Shown here: in pieces, positions 12 to 19,945 of the stretch | How the letters are laid out: every line of letters starts with the position of its first letter | Numbering within the stretch: position 1 is the stretch's first letter | Virus record (IMG/VR): IMGVR_UViG_2061766007_000736 | Length of the DNA: 20,000 nt | Reading direction: 5' to 3' (one strand) | From: an uncultured virus (IMG/VR IMGVR_UViG_2061766007_000736) | Taxonomy: Duplodnaviria; Heunggongvirae; Uroviricota; Caudoviricetes | Position numbers and translations under genes: made by a program | The notes under the pieces: generated by a model | Database searches by the model: none | Seen by the model: only the letters and a program-made list of their open reading frames with translations | What the model was told of the DNA's origin: nothing

Positions 12-269
12 ATGCAAAATGATTTAATATGTCCAAACTGTAATTCCCTACTTTATTGGAGTCTTGACGAATGGGGTAGAACACCATGGCATTTACATTG
101 TGATAAATGTTCTATTAATATTGGTGTAACTAAACAAAATAAAGCTATTGAATTAATTCAAAAATATCATAAACCAAACACTTGGATTGAATATTATAAT
201 AATGAGATTAAAATATTATTTGAAAATAATAAACAAATAATATTTAAGGAGATAGATAATGCAAAGTGA
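12..269 (+). CDS. Small hypothetical protein with a Zn-ribbon-like CxxC...CxxC motif
   Basis: 85 aa ORF with CPNC and CDKC; its TGA overlaps the start of the topoisomerase gene. Confidence 0.7.
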   Translation: MQNDLICPNCNSLLYWSLDEWGRTPWHLHCDKCSINIGVTKQNKAIELIQKYHKPNTWIEYYNNEIKILFENNKQIIFKEIDNAK

Positions 270-2559
270 TTTAATAAAAGAATTAAGTACAAACTTTATT
301 GAATATGCCGCATCTGTTAATTCAGACAGAGCAATACCAAATGCTACTGACGGTCTTAAACCAGTTGCTAAAAGAATTCTTTATGGAGCTTTTACAGGAG
401 GAAGGACTAGTAATAAACCTCATGTAAAGTGTGCGAAGATTGTCGGAGATGTAATGGGATCCTATCATCCTCATGGCGATTCATCTATATATAGTGCATT
501 AGTTCGTCTTGCCCAAGACTGGGTAATGCGTTATCCTCTTATTGATTTTCACGGCAATGTTGGCAATCAGGCTGGAGATGAACCTGCCGCATCTCGTTAT
601 ACAGAAGCAAGACTTTCTAAATTAACAGAAGAAGGTATGCTTCAAGGGTTAAAGAAAAATAATGTTGATTTCATTCCTAATTATGATGAAACAACAGAAG
701 AACCTATAGAGCTACCAAGTATTTTTCCAAATCTTCTTTGTAATCCCAATAGTGGTATTGGTGTTGCTATGGCTTGCTCTTGGGCGCCTCATAATCTTGG
801 GGAAGTGGCCGCGGCGATTAATCAATATTTAATTGGTGAAGAACCAATGCTGCCGGGTCCAGATTTTCCAACAGGAGGAGTTATTATCAACTCAAAAGAC
901 ATTCCTGTAATTATGCGGACTGGACATGGTAGTGTAAAAATTCGTAGTAAATATGAAATTGATAAGCAAAAAATCGTATTTACAGAAATCCCCTATGGGA
1001 CAACTATTGAAGGGTTAATGACAGAAATTGGTAAAATTTCTGATGATAAAGAAATTGAAGGAATTGATAATATTCGTGACGAATCTAATAAAAAAGGTAT
1101 TAGAATTGTTATTGAATGTGATAAAGGCATTAATCCAGCAAATATTGTAAATAAATTATTTGCAAAAACAAATTTACAGAGTTCATTTAGCTATAATCAA
1201 GTTGCTCTTGTTAATAAGGTGCCAACTGAATTAAATCTTAAAAATTGTATTAAAATTTATGTTGACCATAATATTGATTGTATTGTAAGAGAGACTAAAT
1301 TTGATTTAAATAAAGCTATTGATAGACTTGAAATTGTTAATGGTTTGTTGCGGGCGCTTGAGGATATTGACAACATCATAACCCTGATTAAGAGTTCTGA
1401 AAATGCGACTGCCGCAAAGGAAAAATTAATTGCAAAATATCAGTTTACAGAAAATCAAGCTAAGGCAATTTTAGCTATGCGTCTGTCTTCTCTTGCTAGA
1501 CTTGAAAAGATAGAATTAGAGAAGGAAGCAAAAGAATTAGAAAATAAAATTGCAGATTTAAAAGATATTTTAACAAATGAAGAAAGGCAAAAAGGTATTC
1601 TTAAATCTCGCCTTTCTGATATTGTAAAGAAATATGGAGACGCCCGCCGCACAGAATTAACTCAGATTGATATTAAACCAGAAGATAAGGTAATTGAAGA
1701 AGTCATTCCAGAAGATTGCGTTGTAATTCTCTCTCAGGGTGGAAGTATTAAAAGAGTTCCGCAAAAATCTTTTAAGGTTCAGCGCAGAAATAGTAAAGGC
1801 GTAAAAACAAAAGATGATATTGTAATGTCTACTATTTCAACTAACACTATTGATAATTTACTTTTATTTACTAAAAAAGGTAAAATGTTTAAAATCATAG
1901 TTGATGAAGTGCCAGTTGGAACTAATGCTTCAAAAGGAGTCCATGTGGGAACATTAATTAATATGGACCAGGATGATGAAGTAATTGCAATCACTTCTCT
2001 CGCAAGAAGCAATACAGCAAAATATGTAGTATTCTTTACTAAAAAAGGTTTAATGAAAAAGACCTATTTAGAGGAATATACAAAAGTAAAACGTAGTACA
2101 GGTATTGCGGCAATTAAAATTAATGATGGTGATTCTATTGCTAATGTAGAATTTATTAATGAAGAAGATATTCTCGTAATTACTAAAAATGGAATGTCTA
2201 TTCATTTTGAAAGTAAACTTGTAAATCCCATTGGAAGAATTGCAGCAGGTGTAAAAACTATTAAACTTGATGACGATGATGAAGTCGTAGTTGGTATCCC
2301 GATTAAAGCTGATGATAATATTGCAATCTTTTCAACAAAAGGATATGGAAAAAAGACTTCTGTAAAAGAATTTACAGTACAAGGACGCGGCGGCAAGGGC
2401 CTTATGATTTATAGACCAAGCACTGTTTACGGTGAAATAGCTGGAGCGGCAGTTGTATCTAATGATGATACTATTTTACTCACAGGTCAGCCTAATTCTA
2501 TATGCATTGCTGCATCAGATTTACCTTCATTAACCAGAACCAGTTTTGGTAATATTATG
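259..2559 (+). CDS. gyrA: Type IIA topoisomerase subunit A (GyrA/ParC family); 3' end lies in the N gap
   Basis: DGLKPV, HPHGDS, catalytic AASRYTE, PNLLCN, GPDFPTGG and C-terminal beta-pinwheel repeats (QRRNSKG, QGRGGKG). SD AAGGAG upstream. No in-frame TAG. Confidence 0.95.
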
Positions 2560-2996: not shown

Positions 2997-3314
2997 ATGT
3001 TTAAAAAAATTAGTCAAAAAATATTAGCCTATAAATACGAAAAAGCTAAAAATATTTATATAGTTGGTTGTTGGGCGCGATGGGGTGTGCTTCCCGCAAA
3101 ATTTAGCGGAAAATTTGATAAAGAAGGAAATCCATTAACAATTTATTATACAGATTGTAATGGTACCCAAGACCTCTATTATATTCATGAATGGTATAAA
3201 GAAACCACAGGGTCTACCATAGCTTATTTTTTTAATGAAGACCAAGCAGAAACTTTAGCAAGATATTTAAATGAAAAGGAGAATAAATGGAAGAGTGGAC
3301 TATTAGAAGTTTAA
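2997..3314 (+). CDS. Hypothetical protein (105 aa)
   Basis: GAGGAG SD then ATG at 2997 (MFKKISQK...); ends TAA and overlaps the ligase start. Confidence 0.7.
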   Translation: MFKKISQKILAYKYEKAKNIYIVGCWARWGVLPAKFSGKFDKEGNPLTIYYTDCNGTQDLYYIHEWYKETTGSTIAYFFNEDQAETLARYLNEKENKWKSGLLEV

Positions 3315-4426: not shown

Positions 4427-4441
4427 TGGTCAGATTCTTTT

Positions 4442-4493
4442 AATTTAAAGTTTTTATTTTTTATATTATAATGAAAAATAGAAACTTTAAATT
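4442..4493 (+). promoter_or_regulatory. Long inverted repeat upstream of the endonuclease RBS
   Basis: AATTTAAAGTTTTTATTTTT (4442-4461) pairs with AAAAATAGAAACTTTAAATT (4474-4493) with one U-G. The intervening 12 nt contain TATAAT. AAGGAG follows at 4495-4500. Confidence 0.6.
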
Positions 4494-4510
4494 CAAGGAG
4501 AAGAAATTAT

Positions 4511-5239
4511 ATGGCAAAAACACAAGATTTAACAGGGATGAGTTTTGGAAGATGGAAAGTTTTAAATTTAGCATTTAGAAAAAATGGAAAAATATATTGG
4601 CATTGTCAATGCCAATGTGATAAAAAAACAGAAAAAGATATTCAAGGACAACATTTAAAAGAAGGACGCTCTAAAAGTTGCGGTTGTTTAAGAAAAGAAC
4701 TTATCTCTTAGAAAACTAAAATTAATATGATAGGACAAAAATTTGGACATTTGATTGTTATTGCTTAGGCAAAAAGCAGTAAAGATAGACATGCTCAATG
4801 GCTTTGTCAATGTGATTGTGGAAATCAAAAAATTATTTTAGGAAAAAGTTTAAGAAATGGTAGCACTCAATCATGCGGATGCTTAAAATCAAAAGGTGAA
4901 GAAAAAATTATAAAACTTTTGAAAGAAAATAATATTTCTTTTTAGACAGAAAAAAGTTTTAATAATTGTAGATATACTGATACTAATTTTAAAGCAAAAT
5001 TTGATTTTTGGGTTAATAACTAGTATATTATCGAATATGATGGAAAACAGCATTTTGGAATTGGAGGATGGAATGATGAAAATAATTTTAAAATTATTCA
5101 ATAGCATGATTATTTTAAACAAGCATGGTGTAAAGAAAATAATATTCCATTGATTCGTATTCCATATACTCATTTATCTTCTCTTTCTATAAAAGATTTA
5201 TTATTAGAAACATCTCAATTTAAGGTATAGGAGGTATAA
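4511..5239 (+). CDS. Free-standing putative homing endonuclease (2x CxC...SCGC Zn repeat + Vsr/DUF559-like EYDGxQH nuclease), 242 aa with TAG as sense
   Basis: Continuous frame through TAGs at 4709, 4766, 4943, 5021, 5102 and 5228 to TAA at 5237-5239. Motifs WHCQCQC..SKSCGC, WLCQCDCG..TQSCGC, SKGEEKI, FDF, IEYDGKQH, LIRIPY. Confidence 0.85.
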
Positions 5240-5244
5240 TTATT

Positions 5245-6081
5245 ATGTATAAATTTTTAGAAATTCCAAAAATATGTCCATATTGTAATCAACCTACTGA
5301 AATAATTATTTCAGAAGCAAATGTAGAAAAATTATTTTGTACAAATCCAAACTGTAATGCTAAATTGATTAATCGTTTAGAAAATTTTGCAGGTAAAAAA
5401 GGTCTTGATATAAAAGGACTTTCAAAAGCAACTTTTGAAAAACTTATTGATTGGGGTTGGATAAATAATATCGAAGATATTTTTAATCTTTATACCCATA
5501 AGAATGAATGGATTAATAAGCCAGGCTTTGGTGTAAAATCTGTTGATAAAATACTTAAATCAATAGAAGAACATAAACATACAACACTTGATGCCTTTAT
5601 ATCTTCTATTGGTATTCCTTTTATTGGTAAAACAGCGGCAAGGGATTTAAGCAATTATTTTGAAACTTATGAAGATTTCCGTAATGCTATAAAAGATAAT
5701 AATTATCATTTTTATGATTTAGATAATTTTGGCGTAGAAATGGATAATAGTTTAAAAATTTTTAATTATGCGGAAGCTGATAGAATTTCTAAATTTTTAA
5801 TTATTGATGCCCCTGTTGTTAACAACGATTTAATAAAAAATAATCTTGTGGGAAAAACTATTGTCATTACAGGAAAACTTACAAAATTTAAGAATAGAGA
5901 CGAATTAAAAGCCGCCATTGAAAAACATGGTGGTAAAGTATCAAGTTCTATTTCAAAGAAAACTTTTTTACTTATTAACAATGATTTTGAAAGTCAGTCA
6001 TCAAAGAATAAAACTGCAAAAAGCTATGGAATACCAATTATCACAGAACTCGATTTTATGACACAATATCTTGAAAATTAA
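5245..6081 (+). CDS. ligA: NAD+-dependent DNA ligase, C-terminal part (Zn finger, HhH, BRCT)
   Basis: CPYC...FCTNPNC, LDIKGLS, GFGVKS, IGIPFIG, BRCT GKTIVITGKL...GGKVSSSISKKT. Has its own SD GGAGG (5230-5234) and ATG. Confidence 0.92.
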   Translation: MYKFLEIPKICPYCNQPTEIIISEANVEKLFCTNPNCNAKLINRLENFAGKKGLDIKGLSKATFEKLIDWGWINNIEDIFNLYTHKNEWINKPGFGVKSVDKILKSIEEHKHTTLDAFISSIGIPFIGKTAARDLSNYFETYEDFRNAIKDNNYHFYDLDNFGVEMDNSLKIFNYAEADRISKFLIIDAPVVNNDLIKNNLVGKTIVITGKLTKFKNRDELKAAIEKHGGKVSSSISKKTFLLINNDFESQSSKNKTAKSYGIPIITELDFMTQYLEN

Positions 6082-6099
6082 AAAAATTTTTGTTATTAT
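6071..6099 (+). promoter_or_regulatory. sigmaA/sigma70-type promoter
   Basis: TTGAAA-17 nt-TATTAT with extended TG; 16 nt of the spacer are identical to the promoter at 9687. Confidence 0.7.
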
Positions 6100-6168
6100 A
6101 AATATAGATGAAAAAGATAAATCATCTAGTAAGTATATAGATTAATTTTAAATTATAAGGAGAAAAAA

Positions 6169-6450
6169 ATGAAACAAAATAGTATTGATGTTTTTAATTA
6201 TGTGAAAAACCATGCTGACTAGAATCTAACAGCTAATGATATTGCAGAAGGACTAGGTTTATCACCAAGATCTGTAAATGCAATTATTACTTCTGTTTTT
6301 GTTCGTCATAAGGACGAAGATAAAAATGTTATTCCTCTCATGGAAAGAGTACCCGCAGAAGTATTTGATGATGTAACTGGATTCCATAAAGCTGTAAAGT
6401 TCATCAAACTGACAGATGATGGCGAAGTTTTTGAACCCGTTATTGACTAA
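6169..6450 (+). CDS. Winged-helix DNA-binding protein (93 aa, one in-frame TAG)
   Basis: AAGGAG SD. MKQNSIDVFNYVKNHAD*NLTANDIAEGLGLSPRSVNAII...FIKLTDDG; TAG at 6220; ends TAA. Missed by the ORF track. Confidence 0.8.
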
Positions 6451-6463
6451 GCACATTTTACGA

Positions 6464-6499
6464 AAGAGGATTGGATTTTAAAATCTAATCCTTCTTTTT
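6464..6499 (+). terminator. Rho-independent terminator
   Basis: AGGATTGGATTT / AAATCTAATCCT stem (one G-U) followed by TCTTTTT. Confidence 0.65.
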
Positions 6500-6513
6500 G
6501 TATAAGGAGAAAA

Positions 6514-7438
6514 ATGGTTCCAATAATTTTTAGTATTATATTTTTAATATGCGGTGGTATACTCTATTATAAGGCCCACCGCATAAAAATTGAAAAAAAT
6601 ATATAGCAATAGCAGTATAATAAAGAATTATTTGAATATAAAACCAATTTAGAACAAGAAGTTGAAAGAGTTCAACAGAGAAAGAATGATGAACAACTTT
6701 TAGTTCAGCAAATTTTAGAGCTTAAAAAACAAAGAAAATAGGAATTAGAAAATGATTTTTAGAAAGAACAAAATCTAATTCAATTAAAACTTCAAAAAGC
6801 GCAAGATAATTGTGACCGCTAGATTGNNNNNNNNNNNNNNNNNNAAAATAAGATAGTCTGCTCGCGAGTAGGCTAAACAAATACAAGAAGATATTAATAA
6901 ATTAAAAAATTCTTTAAGTGCCAGTGTCGAAGCACGTCTCCGCGAACAAGAGAAAAAAGAAAAAATTAATTTTTATAAGTTATCTATCACTGATGCGGAT
7001 TTAGCAGATGTTAAAATGTTAGAAAACTTAAAAGTATCTTTTCATAAACCTGTTGTTTTAAGTAAACTTATTTGGACTCAATATTTTCAAAAGCAAATGA
7101 CAGAATTATGCGATAGGGTTTTGGGAAAGAATGTAATTTGTGGAATTTATAAAATTACTAATTTATTAACTGAACAATGTTATATTGGACAAAGTGTTAA
7201 TATTGCAGATAGATGGAAGCAACATTGTAAATGCGGTTTAGGTATTTAGGCATCTGCAACAAATGTTTTATATAATGCTATGCAGCGAGATAAAATTTGG
7301 AATTTTTCTTTTGAATTACTGGAGGAGTGTCCAAGAGAATTATTAAATGAGAAAGAGCGTTTTTGGATAAATATGTATCAAAGTAATAACTATGGTTATA
7401 ATAGTAACGCAGGAGTAAAGAGTGCCAGCAAAAATTAA
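6514..7438 (+). CDS. N-terminal TM helix + coiled coil + C-terminal GIY-YIG nuclease (8 in-frame TAGs; spans an N gap of inexact length)
   Basis: AAGGAG SD. MVPIIFSIIFLICGGILYY hydrophobic start, E/Q/K-rich helix, then CGIYKITNLLTEQCYIGQSVNIADRW...LNEKERFWI...GYN. Ends TAA at 7436-7438. Confidence 0.8.
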
Positions 7439-8127
7439 ACATTAGATAGGTTAGATTATTAATACAAATAAAATATTAGAAGAAATAAGAAAAAATCATA
7501 AAATTTATTATAGAGTAGAATGTATTTTATGTCATAATATTAGATAGGTTAGAGCAGATAATTTAAATCAGACTTGTCGTTCCTGTGCAGCAAAAATTAG
7601 AGATAAAAAATATTCTAAAGTAAAAAAAGATTTAACAGGTCAACGATTTGGTAATTGGATAGTTATAAATAAAGCCTAGAAAACTAATTATTGGCATTGC
7701 AAAGACATTGAAACCGGAACGGAAAGAGATGTTTTTAGAGGCAATTTAACACAGGGCCTATCTAAAGGAGACGGTTCTGTTTTTTCTTGGGGACAAAGGC
7801 AAATTATTTATTTACTAAATTAGAATAGTCTTTCATATATAACAGAATGTACTTTTTCAGATTTAAAAACAGATAAAAATGGGACTCCAAGATTTGATTT
7901 TGCTATTATGGACACGCATAATAATGTCTATTGTTTAATAGAATATGATGGAAGACAACATTTTTATTATGATAAAAATTGGAAAATGTCAAAAAAAGAT
8001 TATTAGAGATTACAATATATAGACAATTTAAAAAATTAGTATTGTAAAATCCATAATATAAAGTTATATAGATTTAATAAAAATTCTATTTTATAGGAAT
8101 AGATTAATCAAATTGCACAAGAATTTT
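7422..8127 (+). CDS. Free-standing putative homing endonuclease (EYDGxQH family; GTG start; 9 in-frame TAGs; end in gap)
   Basis: AGGAG SD then GTG at 7422. CILC...CRSC, DLTGQRFGNW, RFDFAI, CLIEYDGRQH. TAGs at 7443, 7452, 7545, 7677, 7821, 8004, 8037, 8094, 8100. Confidence 0.8.
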
Positions 8128-8143
8128 NNNNNNNNNNNNNNTA

Positions 8144-9016
8144 ATGAAATTTGAACATACTTAGGTATTTAATTTTTAGGGAGCTTTTAGAGGACTTAGA
8201 AATCCCAAAAATAGTTGGAATAAAAGCGACAGCTTTTTTGGAATTATACCTATTGATTCTTATGATTACGAATCTGATGTAGCAGATAAATGGATCGGTT
8301 TTTCACATCCATAGTTAAAATGGCCTCAAGAATATACTGAAGAAGGATATAATCTTGAAGAACAGTATTGTGAAAAATTAATTAAAGATGGTGTATTAAG
8401 ATTAAATGATAATGATGAAATGGCAGAGGTTGCTTTTATTGGTCCTAATGATATGAAATTAGCACAAACCTTAATTAAAGGCGGCCCTGAACATCGTAAG
8501 TTTTTACGACAGATTTTTGTTTCTGTTGACATTACCGCGCCGCTTTATTGGTGGAAATAGATGGACACTTATAAAGTAGGAACAGTTGCCAACAGTACAT
8601 CAACAATGCACAAATTGGCAAGTAAGCCAATCACTCTTGATTGTTTTGAAACAGATGATTTTAATTAGGATTTAGTATATTACGAAATTCCAGGTGCGGC
8701 AAATGAAGTTGGTATGTTTGCAGACTTTATGATTGAACAACTTGAATTTCTTCGCCAGAAATATCTTGAAACAAAAGATAAAAGATATTGGAAAGAACTT
8801 GTGCGATGGCTGCCTTGTGGATGGCTCCAGACGAGAACTTGGACAGCTAATTACGAGACTATCCGCGCTATTTGTCACCAACGCCGCGACCATAAATTAA
8901 ATGAATGGAGTGGTAAAGATGATTCGTCTAAGGATACTTTTATCGCGTGGGCGCGTACATTACCATATGCTCAATATTTAATTTTTGATGATTAGAATGT
9001 TCCTTTTCAAATTGAA
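8144..9016 (+). CDS. thyX: Phage ThyX-like (flavin-dependent thymidylate synthase family) protein; 6 in-frame TAGs; end in gap
   Basis: GAFRGLRNPKNSW, GPEHRKFLRQIFVSVDITAPLYWWK*MDTYKVGTVANSTSTMHK, LP..WLQTRTWTANYETIR...RRDHKLNEW. TAGs at 8162, 8177, 8312, 8558, 8666, 8993. Confidence 0.75.
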
Positions 9017-9322
9017 NNNNNNNNNNNNNNNNNNNNNNNNNNNNNNNNNNNNNNNNNNNNNNNNNNNNNNNNNNNNNNNNNNNNNNNNNNNNNNNNNNNN
9101 NNNNNNNNNNNNNNNNNNNNNNNNNNNNNNNNNNNNNNNNNNNNNNNNNNNNNNNNNNNNNNNNNNNNNNNNNNNNNNNNNNNNNNNNNNNNNNNNNNNN
9201 NNNNNNNNNNNNNNNNNNNNNNNNNNNNNNNNNNNNNNNNNNNNNNNNNNNNNNNNNNNNNNNNNNNNNNNNNNNNNNNNNNNNNNNNNNNNNNNNNNNN
9301 NNNNNNNNNNNNNNNNCAAGAA

Positions 9323-9697
9323 ATGACTAAAAGAGAAGCATTTATTCAAATTGTAGATGATTTTTTTGAAAAAGCGATTTTAACAGGTGTAGATGATAAA
9401 TATGATTTAAATGCTGCGCTGGATTTTTTTAATGACTTTAAAAATGGTAAAACAAAAAATTCTGGAGCTATGACTGAAAATGGTCAGAAAATTCTTATTT
9501 GGATGCAGGAAAATGTAGATTCAATGAATAACATTTTCACATCTAGGGAGGCGGCAGAGGCACTCTTTACCAGCGGCCGCTCCATCGCAGGTTCTATGAG
9601 AAAACTTGTTAATGATGGTTATGTAGATAAAATTGGTAAAGACCCTGTCCAGTATTCACTGACAGATGCTGGTAAAAACTACCAGTTTGACAATTAA
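9323..9697 (+). CDS. Winged-helix DNA-binding protein
   Basis: TENGQKILIWM...FTSREAAEALFTSGRSIAGSMRKLVNDGYVDK...YSLTDAG matches a wHTH pattern. Confidence 0.8.
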   Translation: MTKREAFIQIVDDFFEKAILTGVDDKYDLNAALDFFNDFKNGKTKNSGAMTENGQKILIWMQENVDSMNNIFTSREAAEALFTSGRSIAGSMRKLVNDGYVDKIGKDPVQYSLTDAGKNYQFDN

Positions 9698-9715
9698 AAA
9701 AATTTTTGATATAAT
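9687..9715 (+). promoter_or_regulatory. Consensus sigmaA promoter upstream of the SSB-like gene
   Basis: TTGACA (9687-9692), 17 nt, TATAAT (9710-9715), with extended TGn. Confidence 0.88.
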
Positions 9716-9753
9716 ATAAGAGTAAAAGTTAGTTGATTAACGAGGAGAAAAAA

Positions 9754-10740
9754 ATGAAAACAAATGCAAATTTTATTAATACAGAAAAGATTGAAGGATA
9801 TGTTTATAGCACAGGCAGTAATTTTAATCAGCTTTCTGAAAGAGTTTCTGGAGCGAATTCTAAAAATCCAGGTACGCCATATATCGCGGGAGACCTTGAT
9901 ATTGCCGTAGATGAAGCAGGTTTAAATGTAATTACCGTTCATTACACTTATGTAACAAAAACCTATAAAAATGGACAGGTTAATAACACTTATGTTGCTC
10001 TGAAAAGAATTATTGATAATCCCGATAAGACTTGGTTAAATGGTGGAAAAGAAAATGCGTTTAAGGTTCAGTGCACCGGAGTTTCTATTGCTCTTAACGA
10101 TTTCATCGCTGGTGATGGTTCCAAGGTTGCAGCAATTAGAAATGAAAACGGATTTTGTTCTATTGTGAATGAACTCGGTCCTGAAGAAAAAAGAAATACC
10201 TTTACAGCAGATATGTTAATTACAAGAGTAACTCATATTGATGCAGACGCAAATAAAAATAATACAAAAGATTTTACTGCTGTTGGTGGTATTATCTTTG
10301 GATATGGTCCAATTATTCTTCCTATTGCCTTCGTTGTTCATAACGAAATGGGAATGAATTATTTTGAAAATCTTGATATTACCCCTTCAAATCCTATTTT
10401 TACAAAAGTTTGGGGACGTATTAATTGCATGACTGTTAAGACTGAGAGAGTTGAAGAATCTGCTTTTGGTGAAGCTGCAGTTCAGACTTATGAGAGAAAG
10501 AGTCGTGAATATGTTATTACTGGAACAGCAAAAGTTCCTTATGATTTTGGTGACGAACAGGTTCTTACACTTGCGGATGTTAATAAGATGAGTCAGGATC
10601 GTCAGACTATGTTAGCAGAAATTGAGAAAAGATATAACGAACGTCAGGCTAATAAAGCTGATGGAGTTAATTTTGATGTGGCTGGCGTAACTAAGCCCGC
10701 TCAGCAGGCGCCGGTTTCTATCGGAGATTTTAAATTTTAA
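9754..10740 (+). CDS. Putative single-stranded DNA-binding protein
   Basis: GAGGAG SD then ATG at 9754. Beta-rich body, flexible tail ending GDFKF (SSB-like), strong promoter, and position directly before an AAA_24/Sak4-like ATPase. Function is inferred. Confidence 0.6.
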   Translation: MKTNANFINTEKIEGYVYSTGSNFNQLSERVSGANSKNPGTPYIAGDLDIAVDEAGLNVITVHYTYVTKTYKNGQVNNTYVALKRIIDNPDKTWLNGGKENAFKVQCTGVSIALNDFIAGDGSKVAAIRNENGFCSIVNELGPEEKRNTFTADMLITRVTHIDADANKNNTKDFTAVGGIIFGYGPIILPIAFVVHNEMGMNYFENLDITPSNPIFTKVWGRINCMTVKTERVEESAFGEAAVQTYERKSREYVITGTAKVPYDFGDEQVLTLADVNKMSQDRQTMLAEIEKRYNERQANKADGVNFDVAGVTKPAQQAPVSIGDFKF

Positions 10741-10743
10741 TAA

Positions 10744-10767
10744 AAAGGGGATTTAATCCCCTTTCTT
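10744..10767 (+). terminator. Rho-independent terminator or stem-loop after the SSB-like gene
   Basis: AAAGGGGAT-TTA-ATCCCCTTT followed by CTT. Confidence 0.65.
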
Positions 10768-10785
10768 ATTATAGAAAGGATAATT

Positions 10786-12840
10786 ATGGCAAATATTGAT
10801 ATTCTTAGTATTTAGCCTCATCAAGTCAGTAGAGATTTAAGAGGATATTCTATCTTTTTCTATGGTGAGAGAGTTTAATGGTTGGCTCACCCTATATAGT
10901 AATATATAGTAAAAAATTCTTAGAAAAATAGGGGACGGCTGAGATGCTTGCCCTAGCGGAAGTTATTAAGTAATATTAATAACACGCACAACGCATTGGT
11001 ATGAAACTAATTTTAAGGGAGATTGCTCAAAAATGAACAACCAAGAAATAATAAAGGCTTATGAAGATGGCGCTTCTTTAGCTTCATTAAGCAGACAAAC
11101 AGGTTTATCTACTTATAAAATTAAAAAAATATTACAAAATAATTCAGTTAAAATTAGAACTCGTTTTGAACAGACTATTTTTACAAATATGTCAAGAGGA
11201 AAACAGATTAATCATAATTATTTTGATGAATTAAATAATGAAAAAGTATACTATTTAGGTTTTCTTGCGGCAGATGGATGCGTAAGACCAAATAGAAATG
11301 AAATTAAAATAGGATTATCTGCAATAGACCGAGAATGGCTTGAAGAATTTAAATTAAAATTAAATTCAGAACGAGAAATCGAAGACTATATTACTGGTAA
11401 AGGATTTGCTGTTAGTGAATTAAAATTTTCATCATTAAAAATAAAAACTGAATTAGCTAAATACAGTATTATTCCTAATAAAACTTATTTAGGAATTACA
11501 ATGAAAGCTATTCCAGATAAATATAAATTAGCTTTTATTAAAGGATATTTTGATGGTGATGGTTGTTTTGTTTTTAATAAAAACACAAAACAGTGTTCTT
11601 NNNNNNNNNNNNNATTTTAGAAGAAATATCTTATTTTTTTAGAGCTGGTAATATTTATTCACATGGGAAAAATTTTGAATTAGATTTTTCAACTAACCCA
11701 ACATTAAAAATAATGGAATTATTTTATAATTTANNNNNNNNNNNNNNNNNNNNNNNNNNNNNNNNNNNNNNNNNNNNNNNNNNNNNNNNGGACGCCTCAA
11801 AAGAGGATGAAAGTTTATGCTGAACTTATACGAATATGAAGTATAAGAATTATAAGATAAAAAACTTATAAGATAACAAAATGCCAAAAAGCGGTAAAAC
11901 AACAACTGCTTCAAAATTTTAGAATAATTTGCTTCTGGCTTTTGAAAAAGGTTACAATGCTATTCCAGGGGTTATGGCTCAACCCATTAATAACTGGGCT
12001 GAATTTAGAAAAGTTCTTAGACAATTAAAAGACCCAAAGGCAAAAGAAAGATTTTATACTATTACAATAGACACATGTGATATTGCATATGATTATTGCA
12101 CAAAATACATTTGTGATAATGCTCTTCGTCCAGATGGCGGATATGGCGTAGATAGTATAAGTGACATCCCATATGGTAAGGGTTATGGTCAAGTTTCAAA
12201 AGAATTTGATGAATGTTTAAGGTCTATCGTCATGATGGATTATGGACTTATTCTTATTTCGCACGCAACTGATAAAGTTTTTAAAGACGAATCAGGTGCA
12301 GAATATAATAAAATTGTACCAACTCTTGATAAAAGAGCTAATAATGTTGTAGCTAGAATGGCAGATATAATTGGTTATTCAAGAATTGTTACCGATAAAG
12401 AGGGACATACTTCAACTAAATTATTTATGCGTGGGACTCCACGATATGAAGCAGGTTCAAGATTTAAATATACACCAGATTATATTGATTTTTCTTATGA
12501 TAATTTAGTAAATGCTATTGGAGATGCTATTGATAAACAAGCTAGAGAAGATGGCAAAGATTACTTTACCGATAAGAGAAATAATCTTTATAAAGACACG
12601 ACTGAAGATCTTAATTTCGATGAACTTATGCGGAATTGTAACGATTTGATTCAGTCTATGATTAGTAATAATTCTGATGAAGTCTTTGTTCAATATTATC
12701 AACCTCGTATTATTCAGATTACTGATAAGTACCTGGGTCGAGGTCAAAAGATGAGCCAATGCTCAAGAGAACAAGTTGAAGCTCTATCTTTAATTCTCGA
12801 CGATCTTCTCTTACTTTCCAAAGAGGCGCCATCAGAATAA
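10786..12840 (+). CDS. AAA_24/Sak4-like P-loop ATPase, join(10786..10869,11884..12840), 346 aa after splicing
   Basis: Exon 1 MANIDILSI*PHQVSRDLRGYSIFFYGE plus exon 2 PKSGKTTTASKF*NNLLLAFEKG restores Walker A GEPKSGKT. Walker B TITIDT, LISH, AGSRF. TAGs at 10813 and 11920. SD AAAGGA. Confidence 0.88.
10870..11883 (+). ncRNA. Group I-like self-splicing intron with an internal LAGLIDADG ORF
   Basis: IGS TTGGCTCACC (10882-10891) is complementary to the ligated exons GGTGAG|CCAA. P2 CTATATA-GTAA-TATATAG; P4 TAGGG/CCCTA; P6a GTTATTAA/TTAATAAC; P7 GCAT (10993-10996)/ATGC (11817-11820); hairpins CCTC/GAGG, CTTATAC/GTATAAG, TTATAAG/CTTATAA; terminal G at 11883. Confidence 0.85.
11033..11823 (+). CDS. 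Intron-encoded double-motif LAGLIDADG homing endonuclease with N-terminal HTH (3' end uncertain, two N gaps)
   Basis: YEDGASLASLSRQTGLSTYKIKKIL (HTH), YYLGFLAADGCV and AFIKGYFDGDGCF motifs. The frame continues after the gap as ILEEISYFF... Confidence 0.88.
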
Positions 12841-12850
12841 TTATATATTA

Positions 12851-12897
12851 AAGACTTGTCAAAGGATTTGCCACTTTGACAAGTCTTATTTTTTTTT
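12851..12897 (+). terminator. Rho-independent terminator
   Basis: Perfect 14-bp stem AAGACTTGTCAAAG / CTTTGACAAGTCTT followed by A and T9. Confidence 0.85.
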
Positions 12898-12904
12898 ATA
12901 TAAT
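12876..12904 (+). promoter_or_regulatory. Consensus sigmaA promoter for the helicase operon, embedded in the terminator
   Basis: TTGACA (12876-12881), 17 nt, TATAAT (12899-12904). Confidence 0.8.
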
Positions 12905-12937
12905 TTAATAAGAAGAAAAATTTTAAAGGAGATTATA

Positions 12938-13453
12938 ATGGCTCATAAAGTTATTTGTTTTTATTGTAAAAAACAATTTGATAGAGATAAAGAACCAACG
13001 AAACAAGTCTCCGCGCGTAGATATGCTCATATGAAATGTTGGGAAGAACATGAAGCCAACATGACTCAAGAGGAAAGAGATATGAGAGCCTTTTATGAAT
13101 ATACACAAAAATTATTCGGAGAAGATTATAATTATATCTTAACTAAAAAACTAGCAGAAAGATATGTAAAAGAAAATCATTATACATATACTGGAATGTT
13201 AAAAACTTTAAAATGGTATTATGAGAAAGAAGGCAACTCGATAGAGAAAAGTAATGGCAGTATAGGAATTATTCCATATATATATAAACAAGCCTTAAAT
13301 TATTACTATTCTTTGTATTTAGCACAACAGATAAATGAAGAAAAAGATATTTCAGATTTTATAATATCAAAAGAAAGAGAAATAAGTATTCAATCACCGA
13401 GAGTATATGTGCGGCCGCCGCATATGTGGTTAGAAGAAGAGGAGGATGAATGA
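12938..13453 (+). CDS. Hypothetical Zn-binding protein coupled to the helicase (possible loader or initiator)
   Basis: CFYC...HMKC motif, AAGGAG SD, ATGA overlap with the helicase start. Confidence 0.75.
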   Translation: MAHKVICFYCKKQFDRDKEPTKQVSARRYAHMKCWEEHEANMTQEERDMRAFYEYTQKLFGEDYNYILTKKLAERYVKENHYTYTGMLKTLKWYYEKEGNSIEKSNGSIGIIPYIYKQALNYYYSLYLAQQINEEKDISDFIISKEREISIQSPRVYVRPPHMWLEEEEDE

Positions 13454-14994
13454 GTTCAAAATATGTAGATATATCTGCGAATATGCAAGTGATTGGTGAC
13501 GTTTTTATAAACCCTTCTCTATTGGATTTAGAAGATAAATATAAATTTAATGAGCAGGATTTTCCGCAAGAGTTTCATAAGATTTTATTTGGTTCAATTT
13601 ATAATCTTCATCAACTTGGAATGAAACAGATTTCTATTGAAGATATTGAAAAATATTTAGAGCAAAGACCAAAAAAATATGCCGTTTATAAAGTTAATAA
13701 AGGCTCTGAATATTTAGAGAATATAAAAGAAATGTGCCAATTAGCAGCATTTGATTATTATTACAGTCGAATGAAGAAAATGACACTTTTAAGAATGTAT
13801 AATCAAAATGTAGGAATGGATTTATCTTGGCTTTATGACCCTGATAATATATTAGATATAAAGCGAAAAGAAGCTCAAGAAACCTGGTTTGATAATACTT
13901 CGATTAACGAAATAGCTAATACTATTAATGATAAGATAGATGAAATTAAAGCAAAATATGTTGATAATTCAGAAGATGGGGTTATCCAAGCTGGAGATGG
14001 TGCGGCTGCGCTGTTAGAAAGATTACGAACAAATCCTGAAATTGGTTATCCTCTATATGGGAGATTAGTTAACACAATTCATAGAGGAGCCAGATTAAAA
14101 AAGTTTTATTTGCGGTCTGCAGCCACAGGTGTCGGAAAGACGCGTTCTATGATTGCAGATGCCTGTCATATTGCTTGTAATAAAATTTATAATCTTGAAA
14201 CCCAACAATGGGAAAATAATGGAACTCGTGAACCTACTCAATTTATTACAACAGAGCAAGAAGAAGATGAAATTCAAACTATGATGATGGCTTTCTTGTC
14301 CGGTGTTAATGAAGACCACATCCTTGAAAATACATATGTCGGAGATGAATGGGAACGAGTAAATGAGGCTGCCGCAATTCTTTCAAAAAGTCCTTTATAT
14401 ATTAAAAAACTTCCAGATTTTTCATTACAAGATATTGAGAATACAATAAAATTTGGTATTCGTCAATATGGTGTGAGATATGTCTTTATGGATTATATCC
14501 ATTCTAGTATGAAAATTCTTAGTGAAATTAGTTCAAAAGCTGGAGTAAAAGGGCTAAGAGAAGATAACATTCTTTTTATGATTAGTGTAAGAATCAAAGA
14601 TTTATGCAATCAGTATGGTGTATTTGTAATGTCAGCTACGCAGTTAAATGCAGATTATGTATCAGCTCAACAGTATGACCAAAACCTATTGCGTGGCGCA
14701 AAAGCTATTGCAGATAAAATTGACTGTGGTATGATTATGTTACAGACCAGTCAAGATGATAAAGAAGCATTAAAAGCTATTATTGATTCAATGGGCATTG
14801 AAATGCCTGATATAAAAATCTCTGTTTATAAGAATAGGCGCGGCCGCTATAAAGATATACTACTCTGGTGTAAATCTGACAGAGGTACTTGTCGTTTTCA
14901 TCCTATTTTTGTAACTAATTATAATTATGAATTATTAAGTATTGAAGATTTAAAAATTAAAGTAACACCTAGAATTGAAAGTAGTGCTTTTTGA
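13450..14994 (+). CDS. dnaB: DnaB-like replicative helicase
   Basis: Walker A SAATGVGKT, ITTE, VFMDYI, ATQLN, LRGAKAIADKID, KNRRG. Confidence 0.92.
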   Translation: MSSKYVDISANMQVIGDVFINPSLLDLEDKYKFNEQDFPQEFHKILFGSIYNLHQLGMKQISIEDIEKYLEQRPKKYAVYKVNKGSEYLENIKEMCQLAAFDYYYSRMKKMTLLRMYNQNVGMDLSWLYDPDNILDIKRKEAQETWFDNTSINEIANTINDKIDEIKAKYVDNSEDGVIQAGDGAAALLERLRTNPEIGYPLYGRLVNTIHRGARLKKFYLRSAATGVGKTRSMIADACHIACNKIYNLETQQWENNGTREPTQFITTEQEEDEIQTMMMAFLSGVNEDHILENTYVGDEWERVNEAAAILSKSPLYIKKLPDFSLQDIENTIKFGIRQYGVRYVFMDYIHSSMKILSEISSKAGVKGLREDNILFMISVRIKDLCNQYGVFVMSATQLNADYVSAQQYDQNLLRGAKAIADKIDCGMIMLQTSQDDKEALKAIIDSMGIEMPDIKISVYKNRRGRYKDILLWCKSDRGTCRFHPIFVTNYNYELLSIEDLKIKVTPRIESSAF

Positions 14995-15005
14995 GGTATT
15001 TTAGT

Positions 15006-15680
15006 ATGGGAGCTTTATTAAAATTATAGGGAGAGAGATTTGGACGATTAACTGTTTTATTTCGTAGTCCAAATAAAGGACATAGAACAGTTTGGCATTG
15101 TAAATGTGATTGTGGGAATGAAGTTGACGTACTTACAGATCATTTACGAAGTGGTCATACTCAGAGTTGCGGTTGTTTGCAGAAAGAAAGGATTTCAAAA
15201 GCTAGAAGTTCTGATTTATTAAATTAGCGATTTGGAAAATTAAAAGTAATTGAAAAAACAAATGAAAGATTAAATGGATTTATTCTATGGAAATGTCAAT
15301 GTGACTGTGGCAATATTATAAAGGTTAGAACTCCAGACTTAACTTCAAAACATACTCAAAGTTGTGGATGTGTCTTATCAAAAGGAGAATAGAAAATTAG
15401 TCAATTATTACGAGAAAATAATATATTATTTGAAACACAAAAAAGTTTTAAAGATTGTCGATTTTCAGATAGTAATTATATGGCTTATTTTGACTTCTAT
15501 TTACCAAAATATAATTGTTTAATTGAATATGATGGGAGTCAACATTTTAAATATAGAGATAGTGGTTGGAATACAAAATAGAATTTTTTAAAAACAAAAA
15601 AACACGATCTTTAGAAAAATAAATATTGTTGGAATAATAATTTAAATCTTATTCGAATACCATATACTTATTTTGATAAT
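15006..15680 (+). CDS. Free-standing putative homing endonuclease (2x CxCDCG...SCGC + EYDGxQH; 5 in-frame TAGs; end in gap)
   Basis: GAGG SD, ATG at 15006. WHCKCDCGN..TQSCGC, WKCQCDCGN..TQSCGC, SKGE*KI, FDFYL, IEYDGSQH, LIRIPY. TAGs at 15027, 15225, 15390, 15579, 15612. Absent from the ORF track. Confidence 0.87.
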
Positions 15681-15723
15681 NNNNNNNNNNNNNNNNNNNN
15701 NNNNNNNNNNNNNNNNNNNNNNT

Positions 15724-15876
15724 ATGATTGAAGTCATAACCACTTGTCAAGGTAATCCAAAAGTTAAATATAAAGGATATAATTTTTTTAAAGCTATATA
15801 TATTTGGATAAGAGAGTGGTATATATATCATAAATATCATACAATGAATTTTTGTTTAAAATTTAAAATAAGATAA
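15724..15876 (+). CDS. Small hypothetical protein (50 aa)
   Basis: MIEVITTCQGNPKVKYKG...; fills the space before the next SD. Confidence 0.55.
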   Translation: MIEVITTCQGNPKVKYKGYNFFKAIYIWIREWYIYHKYHTMNFCLKFKIR

Positions 15877-15891
15877 TAGAGAGGAAAAATA

Positions 15892-16295
15892 ATGATTATT
15901 TGTGGTTTCCCTGGGGTTGGAAAATCTACCTTAGCAAAATTTTCTAATTGGGTAGATTTAGAAAGTACCCCATTTGAGAAAAATTGGGTTTGTTATGCGA
16001 AAGTGGCAAAACACATGAGCGATAATGGATATAATGTTATGGTGTCTACTCATCCTTAGCTATTAGAACAATTTGAACAAATGGAAGTAAAATATACTGT
16101 TGTAGTACCTTATTTTACTGATGTTTCTATCTATAAAGATAGATATATTAAAAGAGGAGATAATATTGATTTTACTACTTTAATTGAAATAAATTGGGAT
16201 AAATGGATTGGAGATATTATAACAAAACCTTCAGTTAATAAAACTGTTGTAATATTACCAAGAGATGGCTGTTTACAAGCCTATATTGAAAAATA
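15892..16295 (+). CDS. Small P-loop NTPase/kinase (one in-frame TAG; end in gap)
   Basis: GAGG SD. MIICGFPGVGKSTLA Walker A. The frame reads through TAG 16057 into the tracked ORF at 16081. Confidence 0.8.
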
Positions 16296-16312
16296 NNNNN
16301 NNNNNNNNNNNA

Positions 16313-16438
16313 TGGAGCTGGCTAGGTTTTGTAATATGGTGCGGAAATTGGAGAAAAGCTGAAGAAACTTGTCAAAAAATTGATACAATCGCAAAAGAAC
16401 ATCCAATTATAAATTTTATTGCCATGATACTGTCTTAA
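16313..16438 (+). CDS. C-terminal part of a small, possibly membrane-associated hypothetical protein
   Basis: WSWLGFVIWCGNWRKAEETCQKIDTIAKEHPIINFIAMILS-TAA, directly before the next SD; start lies in the gap. Confidence 0.45.
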   Translation, partial: WSWLGFVIWCGNWRKAEETCQKIDTIAKEHPIINFIAMILS

Positions 16439-16448
16439 AAGGAAGATT

Positions 16449-16658
16449 ATGAATATCAATAAAGAAAATTTTATTAAAGATTATAGACAACTATGTCAAA
16501 AATATAATGTAATGTTAGAACCAGATATTATGGCNNNNNNNNNNNNNNNNNNNNNNNNNNNNNNNNNNNNNNNNNNNNNNNAAGAAACACGTCATATTGA
16601 AGAAGAAGTAGAAAAACAAATGCTATCTTTAAAATATTTAAAAATAGTAAACTTATAA
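16449..16658 (+). CDS. Small hypothetical protein (spans an N gap)
   Basis: AAGGA SD, ATG; ends TAA just before the primase. Confidence 0.5.
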   Translation: MNINKENFIKDYRQLCQKYNVMLEPDIMXXXXXXXXXXXXXXXXXETRHIEEEVEKQMLSLKYLKIVNL

Positions 16659-16663
16659 AGAAA

Positions 16664-17634
16664 ATGTATAAATACGATAAAGACACCTTAAAAGAAAATC
16701 TATCAATAGAAGAGGTATTTGATTTAGTAAGTGAATTAGGCGGTGAGCCTACTATGGGGAATGGTATGTTCACCGCCCGTACCATCTGTCACGGTGGTGA
16801 TAGTCATAAACTTTATTATTATGAGAATACACATCTTTTTCATTGTTATACAGGATGCGGTGATGCCTCTTTCGACATCTATGATCTGGTCCTGAGAGTT
16901 AATAAGACAGCTGGTATTGAAAATTTTTCTCTTCCCCGCGCGATTCTTTTTGTAGCTAGATATTTTGGATATACCGCAGAAAATTTTGATTTTGAAGATA
17001 TTCAAGAAACAACAGAAGATTGGAAGATTATTCACAACTTCAAAAGAAATAAAGAAAAAACTCAATCACAAATTGTAGAATTAAAACTTTACAATAATAA
17101 AATATTAAAATATTTACCTCATCCGCGCATCATCCCCTGGGAGAAAGAGGGCATTTCCTTTGATGTTATGGAATCAAGAGGAATCTGTTATGACCCATTA
17201 AATGAAGCGGTTGTTATTCCGCACTATGATATAAATGGAAATCTTGTTGGAATCAGAGAGCGAACTTTAATTAAAGAAAATGAAATATATGGTAAATATC
17301 GTCCTGCGGTAATTAGTGGAAAGATGTATAATCATCCACTAGGATTTAATCTTTATAATCTTAACAATAGTAAAAGAGCCATCGCCGCCTTACAAAAAGC
17401 TATTGTATTTGAGGGTGAAAAAAGTTGTCTGAAATATGCTTCTTATTTTGGAAAAGATAATGATATTAGTGTGGCTTGTTGCGGCAGTAACTTAATTAAT
17501 TATCAAGTTAAATTACTCTTATCTCTTGGTGTTAAAGAAATCATAATTGCATTTGATAAACAGTTTCAAGAAATAGGAGATGATGAATGGCGGAAATGGG
17601 TTATTAAATTAAAAACTTTATATAATAAATATAA
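16664..17634 (+). CDS. dnaG: DnaG-like primase (Zn-binding + TOPRIM); end in gap
   Basis: ICH...HCYTGC Zn domain, VIPHYDINGNLVGIRER, LYNL, IVFEGEKS, IIIAFDKQ. The tracked 509 aa ORF wrongly merges downstream genes across gaps. Confidence 0.88.
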
Positions 17635-17896
17635 NNNNNNNNNNNNNNNNNNNNNNNNNNNNNNNNNNNNNNNNNNNNNNNNNNNNNNNNNNNNNNNNNN
17701 NNNNNNNNNNNNNNNNNNNNNNNNNNNNNNNNNNNNNNNNNNNNNNNNNNNNNNNNNNNNNNNNNNNNNNNNNNNNNNNNNNNNNNNNNNNNNNNNNNNN
17801 NNNNNNNNNNNNNNNNNNNNNNNNNNNNNNNNNNNNNNNNNNNNNNNNNNNNNNNNNNNNNNNNNNNNNNNNNNNNNNNNNNNNNNNNNNNNNNNT

Positions 17897-18118
17897 ACAA
17901 TTAATTTAAATGATTTAAAAAATGAAATTTCTTCATATCAAACGTCTAATAAAAAAGACCCTATTATATTAATGAATAAAGATACTTATAATTTTTTAAA
18001 AGACAAAGATGATACGTTAGATTTTATTTTTATACCAAATGAAGAAGAAATTGCTTTAATTTATAACTGTCGCCTAGCTATTGCCCCTTGGGTGCCATTT
18101 GGGGAGGCGTTAATACGA
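17897..18118 (+). CDS. Part of a small hypothetical protein between gaps
   Basis: Open frame TINLNDLKNEIS...APWVPFGEALIR, unrelated to primase motifs. Confidence 0.5.
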
Positions 18119-18142
18119 NNNNNNNNNNNNNNNNNNNNNNNN

Positions 18143-19945
18143 CAAACAAAAATTTTTCAACAATTTAGCAAATTTTATATAATAGAGGGATAGCGCAAGA
18201 TGATATTCTGCATTATGTAAATCTATCTGACCAGGATATTAATTCTCCATTGTTATTAGGAAAGTAGAATTTAAAAAATGGAACAATAGCTTTATCAACT
18301 GCCATAGGTTTGCAACGGGATGCTCTAGTTGTCGTAGATTGCGATTGTGATGGATATACATCTGCCGCACTTCTAATCAATTACTTATATAAAATTTTTC
18401 CCACATGGGTAGAAAATCATTTAACTTGGTATATGCACAATGGCNNNNNNNNNNNNNNNNNTTGATTTTATTATGAATAAAAACCCAGGTTTAGTAATCT
18501 GCCCAGACTCAAGCAGTAATGATTATGATTATCATAAAAGGTTAGCAGATAAAGATATTTCAGTTTTAGTTTTAGACCATCACTTAGCAGACCATATTAG
18601 TGAATATGCAATAGTTATTAATAATCAACTATCTGATTATCCTAATAAAGAGCTTTCTGGAGTTGGAGTAGTATGGCAATTTTGTCGATACCTTGATTCT
18701 TGTTTAGGCTTAAATTATGCAAATGATTTTCTTGACCTTGTTGCTCTTGGAAATTGCGGAGATATGATGTCATTACGGTCTTTTGAAACTCGTTATCTAA
18801 TTACTAAAGGATTTAAAAAAGAAAATATTAAAAATCCTTTTATCGACTATATGATTGATAAAAACTCTTTTCCTTTATCAAAAGCAGATTATGTTCCTGC
18901 AGATTCCAGTATGGAATGTACATCAATGGGCGCCGCCTTCTTTATTGTTCCTTTTGTTAATGCTATAACAAGAAGTGGTACATTAGAATAGAAATATTTA
19001 CTTTTTAATTCTATGTTAAATCACAAAGCATTTTAGGAAGTTTTATCAAACAAAAGAGGTCACAAACTTGGTTAGAAAGAAAAATTAATTTTACAAGCAA
19101 TTAGAACTGCCACAAATGTTAAAAATAGACAGACAAGAGCAGAAGATGCTGGATTAGATATGTTAGAAAAAATGATTGAAACTAATCATATGCTTGACCA
19201 TAAAATTCTTCTATTTTTATTAGAACCTGGTCAAATAAATCCTGAAATTCGTGGTTTAATTGCAAATAAATTTATGGCAAAATATCAAAGACCCTGTTGT
19301 TTATTAACGCGTACAACAATAAAGAGAGATGTCCTTATCCAACTTATTTGCTGTGAACATAAAGAACTTCCTAAATTTTTTTAGACATCAGAAACAAAAG
19401 AAGTTATCGCTTATTAGGGGTCAATGCGAGGATACACAAAAACTGGAATTAATAGTTTTAAAGAAGTGCTTGAACAATGTCCAGGAGTTTTGTATGTATA
19501 GGGACATGATAATGCGGCGGGGCTTGGTATAGAAGCAAATTATATAAATGATTTTCTTTATAAGATTGATTAGCTTCTCAAAGACGTTCCTGTTGACCCT
19601 ATTTATCGAATAGATTATGATTTTAAAGAAACTGATAATAATAATCAACGAATTTTAGATATTGCTAATATGAATGATTATTGGGGCCAAGACGTTGACC
19701 GAGCATATGTAAATATTAATTTTAAAATTACAAATTCCAATTTTCAGATTATGAAAAGTAATACTTTAAAATTTAATTTACCAAATGGACTGTCTATTAT
19801 AAAGTTTGGTGGAACANNNNNNNNNNNNNNNNNNNNNNNNNNNNNNNNNNNNNNNNNNNNNNNNNNNNNNNNNNNNNGTCGAATCTATCCACAACTTATT
19901 ATGTAGGATTATGAAATTATAGATTCATCTAAATATTTCTTTTAA
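18143..19945 (+). CDS. recJ: RecJ-like DHH-family ssDNA exonuclease (start in gap; 10 in-frame TAGs)
   Basis: ILYNRGI, VDCDCDGYTS, ICPD, VLDHH, LSGVGVVW, DLVALG..GDMM, GLIANK, GSMRG, GHDNAAG. TAGs at 18166, 18265, 18989, 19034, 19073, 19382, 19415, 19499, 19571, 19904; ends TAA at 19943-19945. Confidence 0.92.

Follow-up and report, generated by a model that had tools for sequence, protein, structure and literature searches.

Stop-codon recoding in gut phages is known, including genetic code 15, in which the amber codon TAG is read as glutamine (Gln). A preprint by Borges et al. (bioRxiv 10.1101/2021.08.26.457843) places TAG opposite Gln "in most cases" and, for phages whose code differs from that of the host, reports no changes other than TAG to Gln and TGA to Trp; its supplement could hold exceptions. 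Table 15 is also used in the available portions of PMC10607447, PMC11210395, and PMC13037316, and an excerpt of PMC9523058 states that Gln at TAG in crAss-like phages was confirmed by proteomics. For bacteria, the accessible part of another preprint (10.64898/2026.05.03.722492) names UGA as the sole stop that has been reassigned. The subject of the present analysis is a 20,000-nucleotide stretch of DNA, hereafter the window, from an uncultured virus of the Caudoviricetes (IMG/VR record IMGVR_UViG_2061766007_000736), in which nine genes carry in-frame TAG codons. The phage works like a code-15 phage and fails the defining test of code 15: its TAG codons appear to stand for glutamate (Glu), and this residue is the new part. 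Our reading, to which sequence comparison gives a probability of roughly 0.8, is that the window derives from an AT-rich phage of the cattle gut, ~135 kb in size and belonging to the SPbeta/EF1-like group, which would use TAG as a sense codon, mainly for Glu, and keep TAA and TGA as stops.

The window phage resembles code-15 phages (crAss-like, Lak, and the TAG clades of Borges et al.) in several ways. TAG is read, TAA and TGA stop, and the recoded codons lie in late genes and are absent from much of the replication module. Code-15 phages also carry a tRNA with the anticodon CUA, tRNA(CUA), and usually no synthetase of their own, which the window phage would share, judged by its relatives. The difference is the residue, Glu here and Gln there. 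TAG is Glu in NCBI tables 30 and 31 (peritrich ciliates and Blastocrithidia), which are eukaryotic nuclear codes; TAA is also Glu in them, whereas most genes of the window phage end in TAA, and it is the phage that imposes the change. Among phage groups, the Agate clade, as described in the accessible part of Borges et al., has a similar genome size, a cattle source, and closely related members of which some keep the standard code and others recode TGA or TAG, but its TAG members are filed as code 15; the window phage was likened to it by description. The family studied here mixes standard, TGA-recoded, and TAG-recoded members as Agate does, which is suggestive only, since other clades mix codes too. 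The phage phAss-1 and the proposed Phassvirus group (PMC10607447, available in part) resemble the window phage in their size of ~135 kb, their neighborhood of SPbeta, EF1, and Enterocloster phages, and, as judged by the relatives of the window phage, their tRNA(CUA) and the lack of a synthetase, and differ, again by description, in the reported Gln, in having 2-3 suppressor tRNAs, and in a human gut source. The accessible parts of PMC8629427 and PMC11122139 contain no phage case of TAG read as Glu, and a full-text literature search, which covered few subscription papers, returned no report of it in a phage.

The gene content of the window is that of a phage, with gyrase A, NAD ligase, DnaB, and primase recognized by Pfam. 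Its nearest cultured phages are SPbeta-like and Enterococcus EF-like (helicase identity ~40%), and the best-matching sequencing runs are labelled bovine gut; runs with a small share were set aside. The assembly is gappy: it contains 1,158 N, and several genes span N runs that break the frame. Relatives were fetched with the DnaB-like helicase, which gave 64 loci in the first scan, most of them at 87-93% identity. Eight near-complete close relatives measure 118-144 kb, and the work on the residue rests on relatives and window together. More distant genomes of the family differ in their code. G006, G011, G014, and G016 are standard, the coding cover of G012, G015, and G019 rises when TGA is read, and that of G013, G017, and G018 rises when TAG is read.

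The nine genes hold 48 in-frame TAG codons, 0 internal TAA, and 0 internal TGA in 2,443 codons, and the other two frames of the same DNA hold 96 TAG, 255 TAA, and 148 TGA. The first-pass annotation, made from the window sequence alone, had counted 48 TAGs in these genes, and this figure is exact gene by gene. It had also stated that read-through joins full-length proteins, which agrees with the family matches obtained for the endonucleases, the GIY-YIG protein, the AAA_24/Sak4-like ATPase, and the RecJ-like protein, and that the visible gene ends are TAA or TGA, as they are; TAA is the main stop and never lies inside genes. Its labels "thyX-like", "wHTH", and "kinase" fared less well, with no Pfam match and no PDB relative, and with PHROG 6721 and 4182 listed as "unknown function". 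Stop-to-stop cover of the window is 0.71 under table 11, 0.95 with TAG read, and 0.77 with TGA read, all three values being inflated by the N runs. The coding-density comparison that the annotation had proposed gave a gain in all eight close relatives, whose cover of 0.54-0.66 under table 11 climbed to 0.85-0.89 once TAG was read, and the TGA control gained merely ~0.03-0.07.

A gappy assembly invites the explanation that the TAGs are assembly errors or signs of decayed genes. However, identical TAG sites are found in relatives, with position 8558 a TAG in 18 of 46 loci, 18989 in 17 of 44, and 19904 in 20 of 28. Contigs from the sequencing runs of other studies match a TAG-bearing endonuclease of the window with 0 differences over 14940-15122 and 2 over 15091-15680, where four of its TAGs lie. 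An RNA run compared with the window consists of contigs, which carry no information on expression or splicing. Because the same TAGs recur in relatives and in the runs of other studies, they are not consensus errors. Neither do TAA and TGA interrupt the genes as often as TAG (0 against 48), and the gain in cover extends across whole genomes. Error or decay can be set aside as extremely improbable, and it is practically certain that TAG is a sense codon in the window phage.

The residue was assigned by a column test, which uses otherwise invariant columns in alignments of 90 gene families from nine genomes and the window. The 190 TAG columns have Glu in 152, Gln in 10, Lys in 8, Asp in 4, and Leu in 4. 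GAG columns behave similarly (Glu 337, Asp 19, and Gln 7 of 390), and CAG columns are dominated by Gln (218, with Lys 19 and Glu 14, of 284); the Glu/Gln contrast between TAG and CAG columns has a p of about 1e-78. In a pairwise comparison of five genomes, TAG faces Glu 208 times and Gln 19 times in 261 cases. When only the five non-TAG genomes serve as reference, the counts are 204 of 242 for Glu and 5 to 7 for Gln, with the same columns recurring between genomes, such that the cases are non-independent. A second TAG lineage (G013, L180, L181, L183, and L187) gives Glu in 29 of 31. Restricted to the window, the test has 31 TAG columns in which 8 or more sense codons align, and these yield a log-likelihood ratio of +32.4 for Glu and -8.8 for Gln, and the CAG and CAA codons of the window score as Gln in the same test. 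In the Walker A motif, at the position before the ATPase intron, 38 intron-less relatives have GAA (17), GAG (6), or TAG (15), and Gln codons in 0. Conservation of this kind makes it very probable that TAG is read mainly as glutamate.

The first-pass annotation had implied Gln, that is, ordinary code 15, and on this point it has to be corrected. The reports consulted all give Gln (the Borges et al. preprint, PMC10607447, and PMC11210395, in the parts accessible), and distant members of the family also read TAG as Gln. Such systems served as controls. Recoded crAss-like loci, namely the recoded IMG/VR relatives that made up 25 of 80 fetched loci, gave Gln 36 and Glu 10 of 66. Within the family, G017 (helicase 58%, 39 genes in common with G001) gave Gln in 27 of 35, and G018 in 5 of 9; five GenBank Suoliviridae genomes were not recoded and had no use as a positive control. 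Since the controls return Gln where it is expected, the column test can detect this residue. Against the opposed Glu and Gln counts at TAG and CAG columns, ordinary code 15 in the window phage has only a very slight chance of being correct.

Some observations count against an exclusive Glu reading. Gln is commoner at TAG columns than at GAG columns (5.3% vs 1.8%, p 0.03), and three window sites lean toward it. Relatives have Gln 32, TAG 21, Thr 5, and Glu 3 of 64 at 10813 and Gln 30 and Glu 18 of 50 at 18166, and the strongest case is 16057, a Gln site with Gln 26, TAG 5, and Glu 0 of 31. The window score given above was computed without 10813, the weight of which is estimated to be too small to reverse the result. 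Furthermore, the CUA anticodon keeps U35, which is also read by glutaminyl-tRNA synthetase (GlnRS). These points would fit a mixture of Glu and Gln, produced by partial amidation by GatCAB or by charging through both glutamyl-tRNA synthetase (GluRS) and GlnRS, in which Glu dominates or the proportion depends on the host. However, Lys is likewise raised at TAG relative to GAG columns (4.2% vs 1.0%, p 0.02) and Asp is lower (2.1% vs 4.9%), and this is the pattern to be expected of one-step mutation from CAG or AAG to TAG in an AT-biased genome. Invariant Glu sites take TAG in many genomes, with a Gln codon never seen there, and each genome has a single CUA tRNA. A mixture is unlikely on these grounds, and a reading mainly as Glu is preferred.

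A CUA-anticodon tRNA had been predicted to lie outside the window, and one such tRNA each is present in nine of nine TAG=Glu relatives and in none of five non-TAG genomes in the same scan. According to the accessible parts of PMC9976931 and PMC2811023, amidotransferases need U1-A72, Gln identity involves the 1-72 pair and the discriminator, and U11-A24 is part of Glu identity. The first pair of the nine CUA tRNAs is C1-G72 in seven, G1-C72 in one, and G1.U72 in one. U1-A72 is found in 0 of 9, vs 7 of 10 tRNA-Gln(UUG) of the family, and G73 in 0 of 9 vs 8 of 10. All nine have U11-A24. Most crAss-like CUA tRNAs start with U1, and the CUA tRNA of G018, where TAG is Gln, shows by eye an unpaired A1.C72, G2-C71, G3-C70, and G73, which make up a Gln-type acceptor end, together with a long variable arm. 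A profile classifier rejected Gln for eight of eight CUA tRNAs. For both CUA tRNAs queried, the best cultured-phage match was annotated as tRNA-Glu, followed in one by Lys, Asn, and Trp, with no Gln among the matches listed.

These features suggest a simple route. The phage tRNA(CUA) would be charged with Glu by the host GluRS, and its first pair (mostly C1-G72, never U1-A72), together with the lack of G73, would shield it from amidation by GatCAB and from GlnRS. It would compete with the host release factor 1 (RF1), such that TAG-rich genes would be completed only after the tRNA has accumulated, a course of events also proposed for code-15 phages. Amber suppressors engineered from tRNA-Glu of E. 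coli mostly insert Glu. Other features of the tRNA speak against this route. The classifier ranked Glu first in only two of eight CUA tRNAs, and U11-A24 and A73 are, by reading, also present in crAss-like CUA tRNAs and hence not diagnostic. The tRNA is known from relatives, with none in the window itself: a tRNA scan of its 20,000 nucleotides found none, and Rfam gave zero matches across it. The CUA anticodon is also without U34 and C36, which are strong GluRS determinants (PMC9976931, accessible part).

Host GluRS is therefore expected to be poor on a tRNA with C34 and A36, and many phage open reading frames (ORFs) have no Pfam match. This gives some room to the idea that TAG is Glu, but that the tRNA is charged by an unrecognized phage protein or that the host itself reads TAG as Glu. 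A phage release factor or synthetase had been suggested in the first-pass annotation; none was found. The tRNA-synt_1c domain (class Ib synthetase) and the RF-1 domain were absent from all five relatives searched, and the complete relative G001, in which 148 ORFs were called and 71 of them chosen for a Pfam scan, revealed no synthetase, release factor, or translation factor in these 71. No protein family found in 5 or more of the 8 close genomes was also present in G013 and absent from all five non-TAG genomes, and no widespread family tracks TAG=Glu. In addition, TAG is missing from the replication genes altogether, which would be expected if the host uses the standard code. We thus regard an unrecognized charging protein or a recoded host as highly unlikely. 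With no phage synthetase, no release factor, and no tracking family, host GluRS is the simplest charger, and a route through phage tRNA(CUA) and host GluRS is probable, as far as can be judged from the genomes.

The CUA tRNA of G013 (G013:C1:23216-23289; L205:3216-3289) has an odd T loop and was missed by ARAGORN; a loose cloverleaf scan found it intact, and a low-threshold ARAGORN intron scan gave noise. Further tRNA-like genes nearby also have odd T loops, and non-canonical T loops may lie behind some "suppressor-less" recoded phages. The "CUA" tRNA that ARAGORN reported in the TGA-recoded G019 is by eye a tRNA-Arg(UCU) and was not counted. G012 and G019, both TGA-recoded, carry a long-armed tRNA with the anticodon UCA. 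In G003, a tRNA-like gene at G003:C1:90223-90295 has the anticodon UUA, which would match both TAA and TAG, and its first position is unpaired; most stops in G003 are TAA, and the gene is perhaps decayed.

TAG is distributed unevenly among genes. Eight genes of the window, mostly of core replication, have 0 TAG vs 211 GAA/GAG, and seven other stretches have 37 vs 104, the two groups having been picked after the counts were seen. Taken over the clade, the share of TAG among Glu codons is ~0.15-0.35 in many genes with putative virion or packaging roles (labelled by the analyst), as against 0.00-0.01 in those for polymerase, gyrases, ligase, helicase, primase, and sigma factor. This distribution is the late-gene bias reported for code-15 phages, and it is consistent with a host of standard code. 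Within the window, TAG is most abundant in the three free-standing endonucleases (20 TAG vs 30 GAA/GAG), which would function only under a code in which TAG is sense. GAG occurs 9.1-11.9 times per 1000 aligned codons in the TAG clade vs 15.9-18.7 in standard-code relatives, a difference that points to GAG as the chief source of TAG codons; however, GAG is also low in two TGA-recoded low-GC genomes (11.6 and 13.0), and GC content may explain a part of the difference. TAG is rarely found at a conserved gene end, with 12 of 612 genes flagged. In an NT5C-like gene (G001:C1:52534-53118) and at a similar-looking end (G009:C1:46476-46952), TAG stands where conservation stops, and it may still be a stop there early in infection. 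Within the TAG-rich late module, some putative major virion proteins (G001:C1:14990-15946 and 19897-21559) contain next to no TAG (0.00-0.02 of Glu codons), which would make sense if read-through were incomplete and a burden on proteins made in large amounts.

The history of the code was examined with a tree of 10 genes from 18 genomes, comprising 4 standard, 3 TGA, 9 TAG=Glu, and 2 TAG=Gln genomes; G020, a 39-kb fragment with 1 informative TAG, was excluded. In the tree, the eight close TAG=Glu genomes group together as one clade, and G013, also TAG=Glu, pairs with the standard-code G014. Placing the nine TAG=Glu genomes in one group is rejected with a p-AU of 0.0004, on a quick tree and with the group defined after the helicase tree had been seen. 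The pairing of G013 and G014 implies either that TAG=Glu originated or was transferred on more than one occasion or that G014 lost it. C1-G72 ends are common to the CUA tRNAs of G013 and the main clade, a hint of a common origin of these tRNAs. The TAG=Gln genomes (G017 with L398-L401; G018 with L402-L410) lie on a separate branch with the standard G016. It appears reasonably likely that the code, with TAG as Glu and TAA and TGA as stops, is undescribed for a phage or bacterium in the literature searched, and that one phage family, which also has standard and TGA-recoded members, assigned amber to Glu in two or more lineages and to Gln in a further one, the residue being decided by the acceptor stem encoded in a single small, mobile tRNA gene without the help of a phage protein. 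Two whole 139-kb family phage contigs, L130 (G006:C1) and L131 (G007:C44, TAG-recoded), lie in GTDB bins of Methanobrevibacter and an Endomicrobiaceae bacterium; this is probably mis-binning, and the bins were not taken as hosts.

Phage gene-calling pipelines (PMC13037316 and PMC11210395, in their accessible parts) render recoded TAG as Gln by default. The lineage is common in the rumen, judged by the 64 loci of the first scan; its predicted proteins would carry the wrong residue wherever TAG occurs, and metaproteomics would overlook their peptides. TAG=Glu also runs counter to the published view, found in the accessible part of Borges et al., that host GlnRS is what makes TAG recodable. A single family in which TAG stands for Glu in some members and for Gln in others, beside members that recode TGA or keep the standard code, would be a natural experiment on how a tRNA by itself sets the code, and a natural Glu amber suppressor without two GluRS anticodon determinants would be useful to work on tRNA identity and code expansion.

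The individual genes of the window, all on the plus strand, differ in what they reveal about the residue. A conserved 93-aa ORF at 6169..6450, the "wHTH" of the first-pass annotation, has 1 TAG (6220), at which relatives have Glu 33, Gln 5, and Lys 5 of 46. A membrane/coiled-coil and GIY-YIG gene (6514..7438; PF01541) has 8 TAGs (5+3); relatives have Glu in 15 of 15 at 6610 and 4 of 4 at 6820, TAG 8 and Glu 4 at 6760, Lys in 13 of 15 at 6739, and Glu 17 and TAG 9 of 32 at 6869. The visible part of the "thyX-like" gene (8144..9016; PHROG 6721), a conserved phage gene of unknown function, has 6 TAGs, with Glu in 36 of 44 at 8177, Glu 27, TAG 18, and Gln 1 of 46 at 8558, and Glu in 29 of 30 at 8993. 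The visible parts of the RecJ-like DHH exonuclease (18145..19945; PHROG 2484, PF01368) contain 10 TAGs (2+7+1), including 18166 and three sites with Glu 27 and TAG 17 of 44 (18989), Glu 31 and TAG 9 of 44 (19073), and TAG 20 and Glu 8 of 28 (19904). The P-loop ORF labelled "kinase" (visible part 15892..16293; PHROG 4182) has 1 TAG, at 16057. TAG-free contrasts are the visible part of gyrase A (259..2559; PF00521), with 0 TAG and 52 GAA/GAG, and the DnaB-like helicase (13450..14994; PF03796), with 0 and 36.

The alignment columns of the endonucleases are too variable to inform on the residue. One of them, free-standing within a split NAD-ligase gene (4511..5239; PHROG 374/559, HNH-type), has 6 TAGs, at 4709, 4766, 4943, 5021, 5102, and 5228. 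A second (7422..8144; PHROG 559/9084) has 9 TAGs vs 9 GAA/GAG, and the visible part of a third (14991..15680; PHROG 374/559), which is near-identical in the runs of other studies, has 5. The NAD-dependent DNA ligase (3287-6081) lies in two ORFs, adenylation/OB and HhH/BRCT, parted by the TAG-rich endonuclease; no intron was recognized at this split, and the ligase is unsplit in 36 of 36 related loci that have both halves.

The Sak4-like AAA_24 ATPase consists of two exons. Exon 1 (10786..10869), with 1 TAG (10813), ends in the codon that precedes the Walker A tail, and exon 2 (11884..12840; PF13479, PHROG 124) has 1 TAG (11920), where relatives have Glu 36 and Pro 32 of 72. The Walker A motif is broken by an intron-like insert with a LAGLIDADG ORF (10870-11883). 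The 189 visible codons of this ORF include 0 TAG, which sets it apart from the other endonucleases of the window. The insert ends in G, as in a group I intron, but the end of the upstream exon would be G, not U, and Rfam gave no match to it. The same insert is present at the same site in L020.

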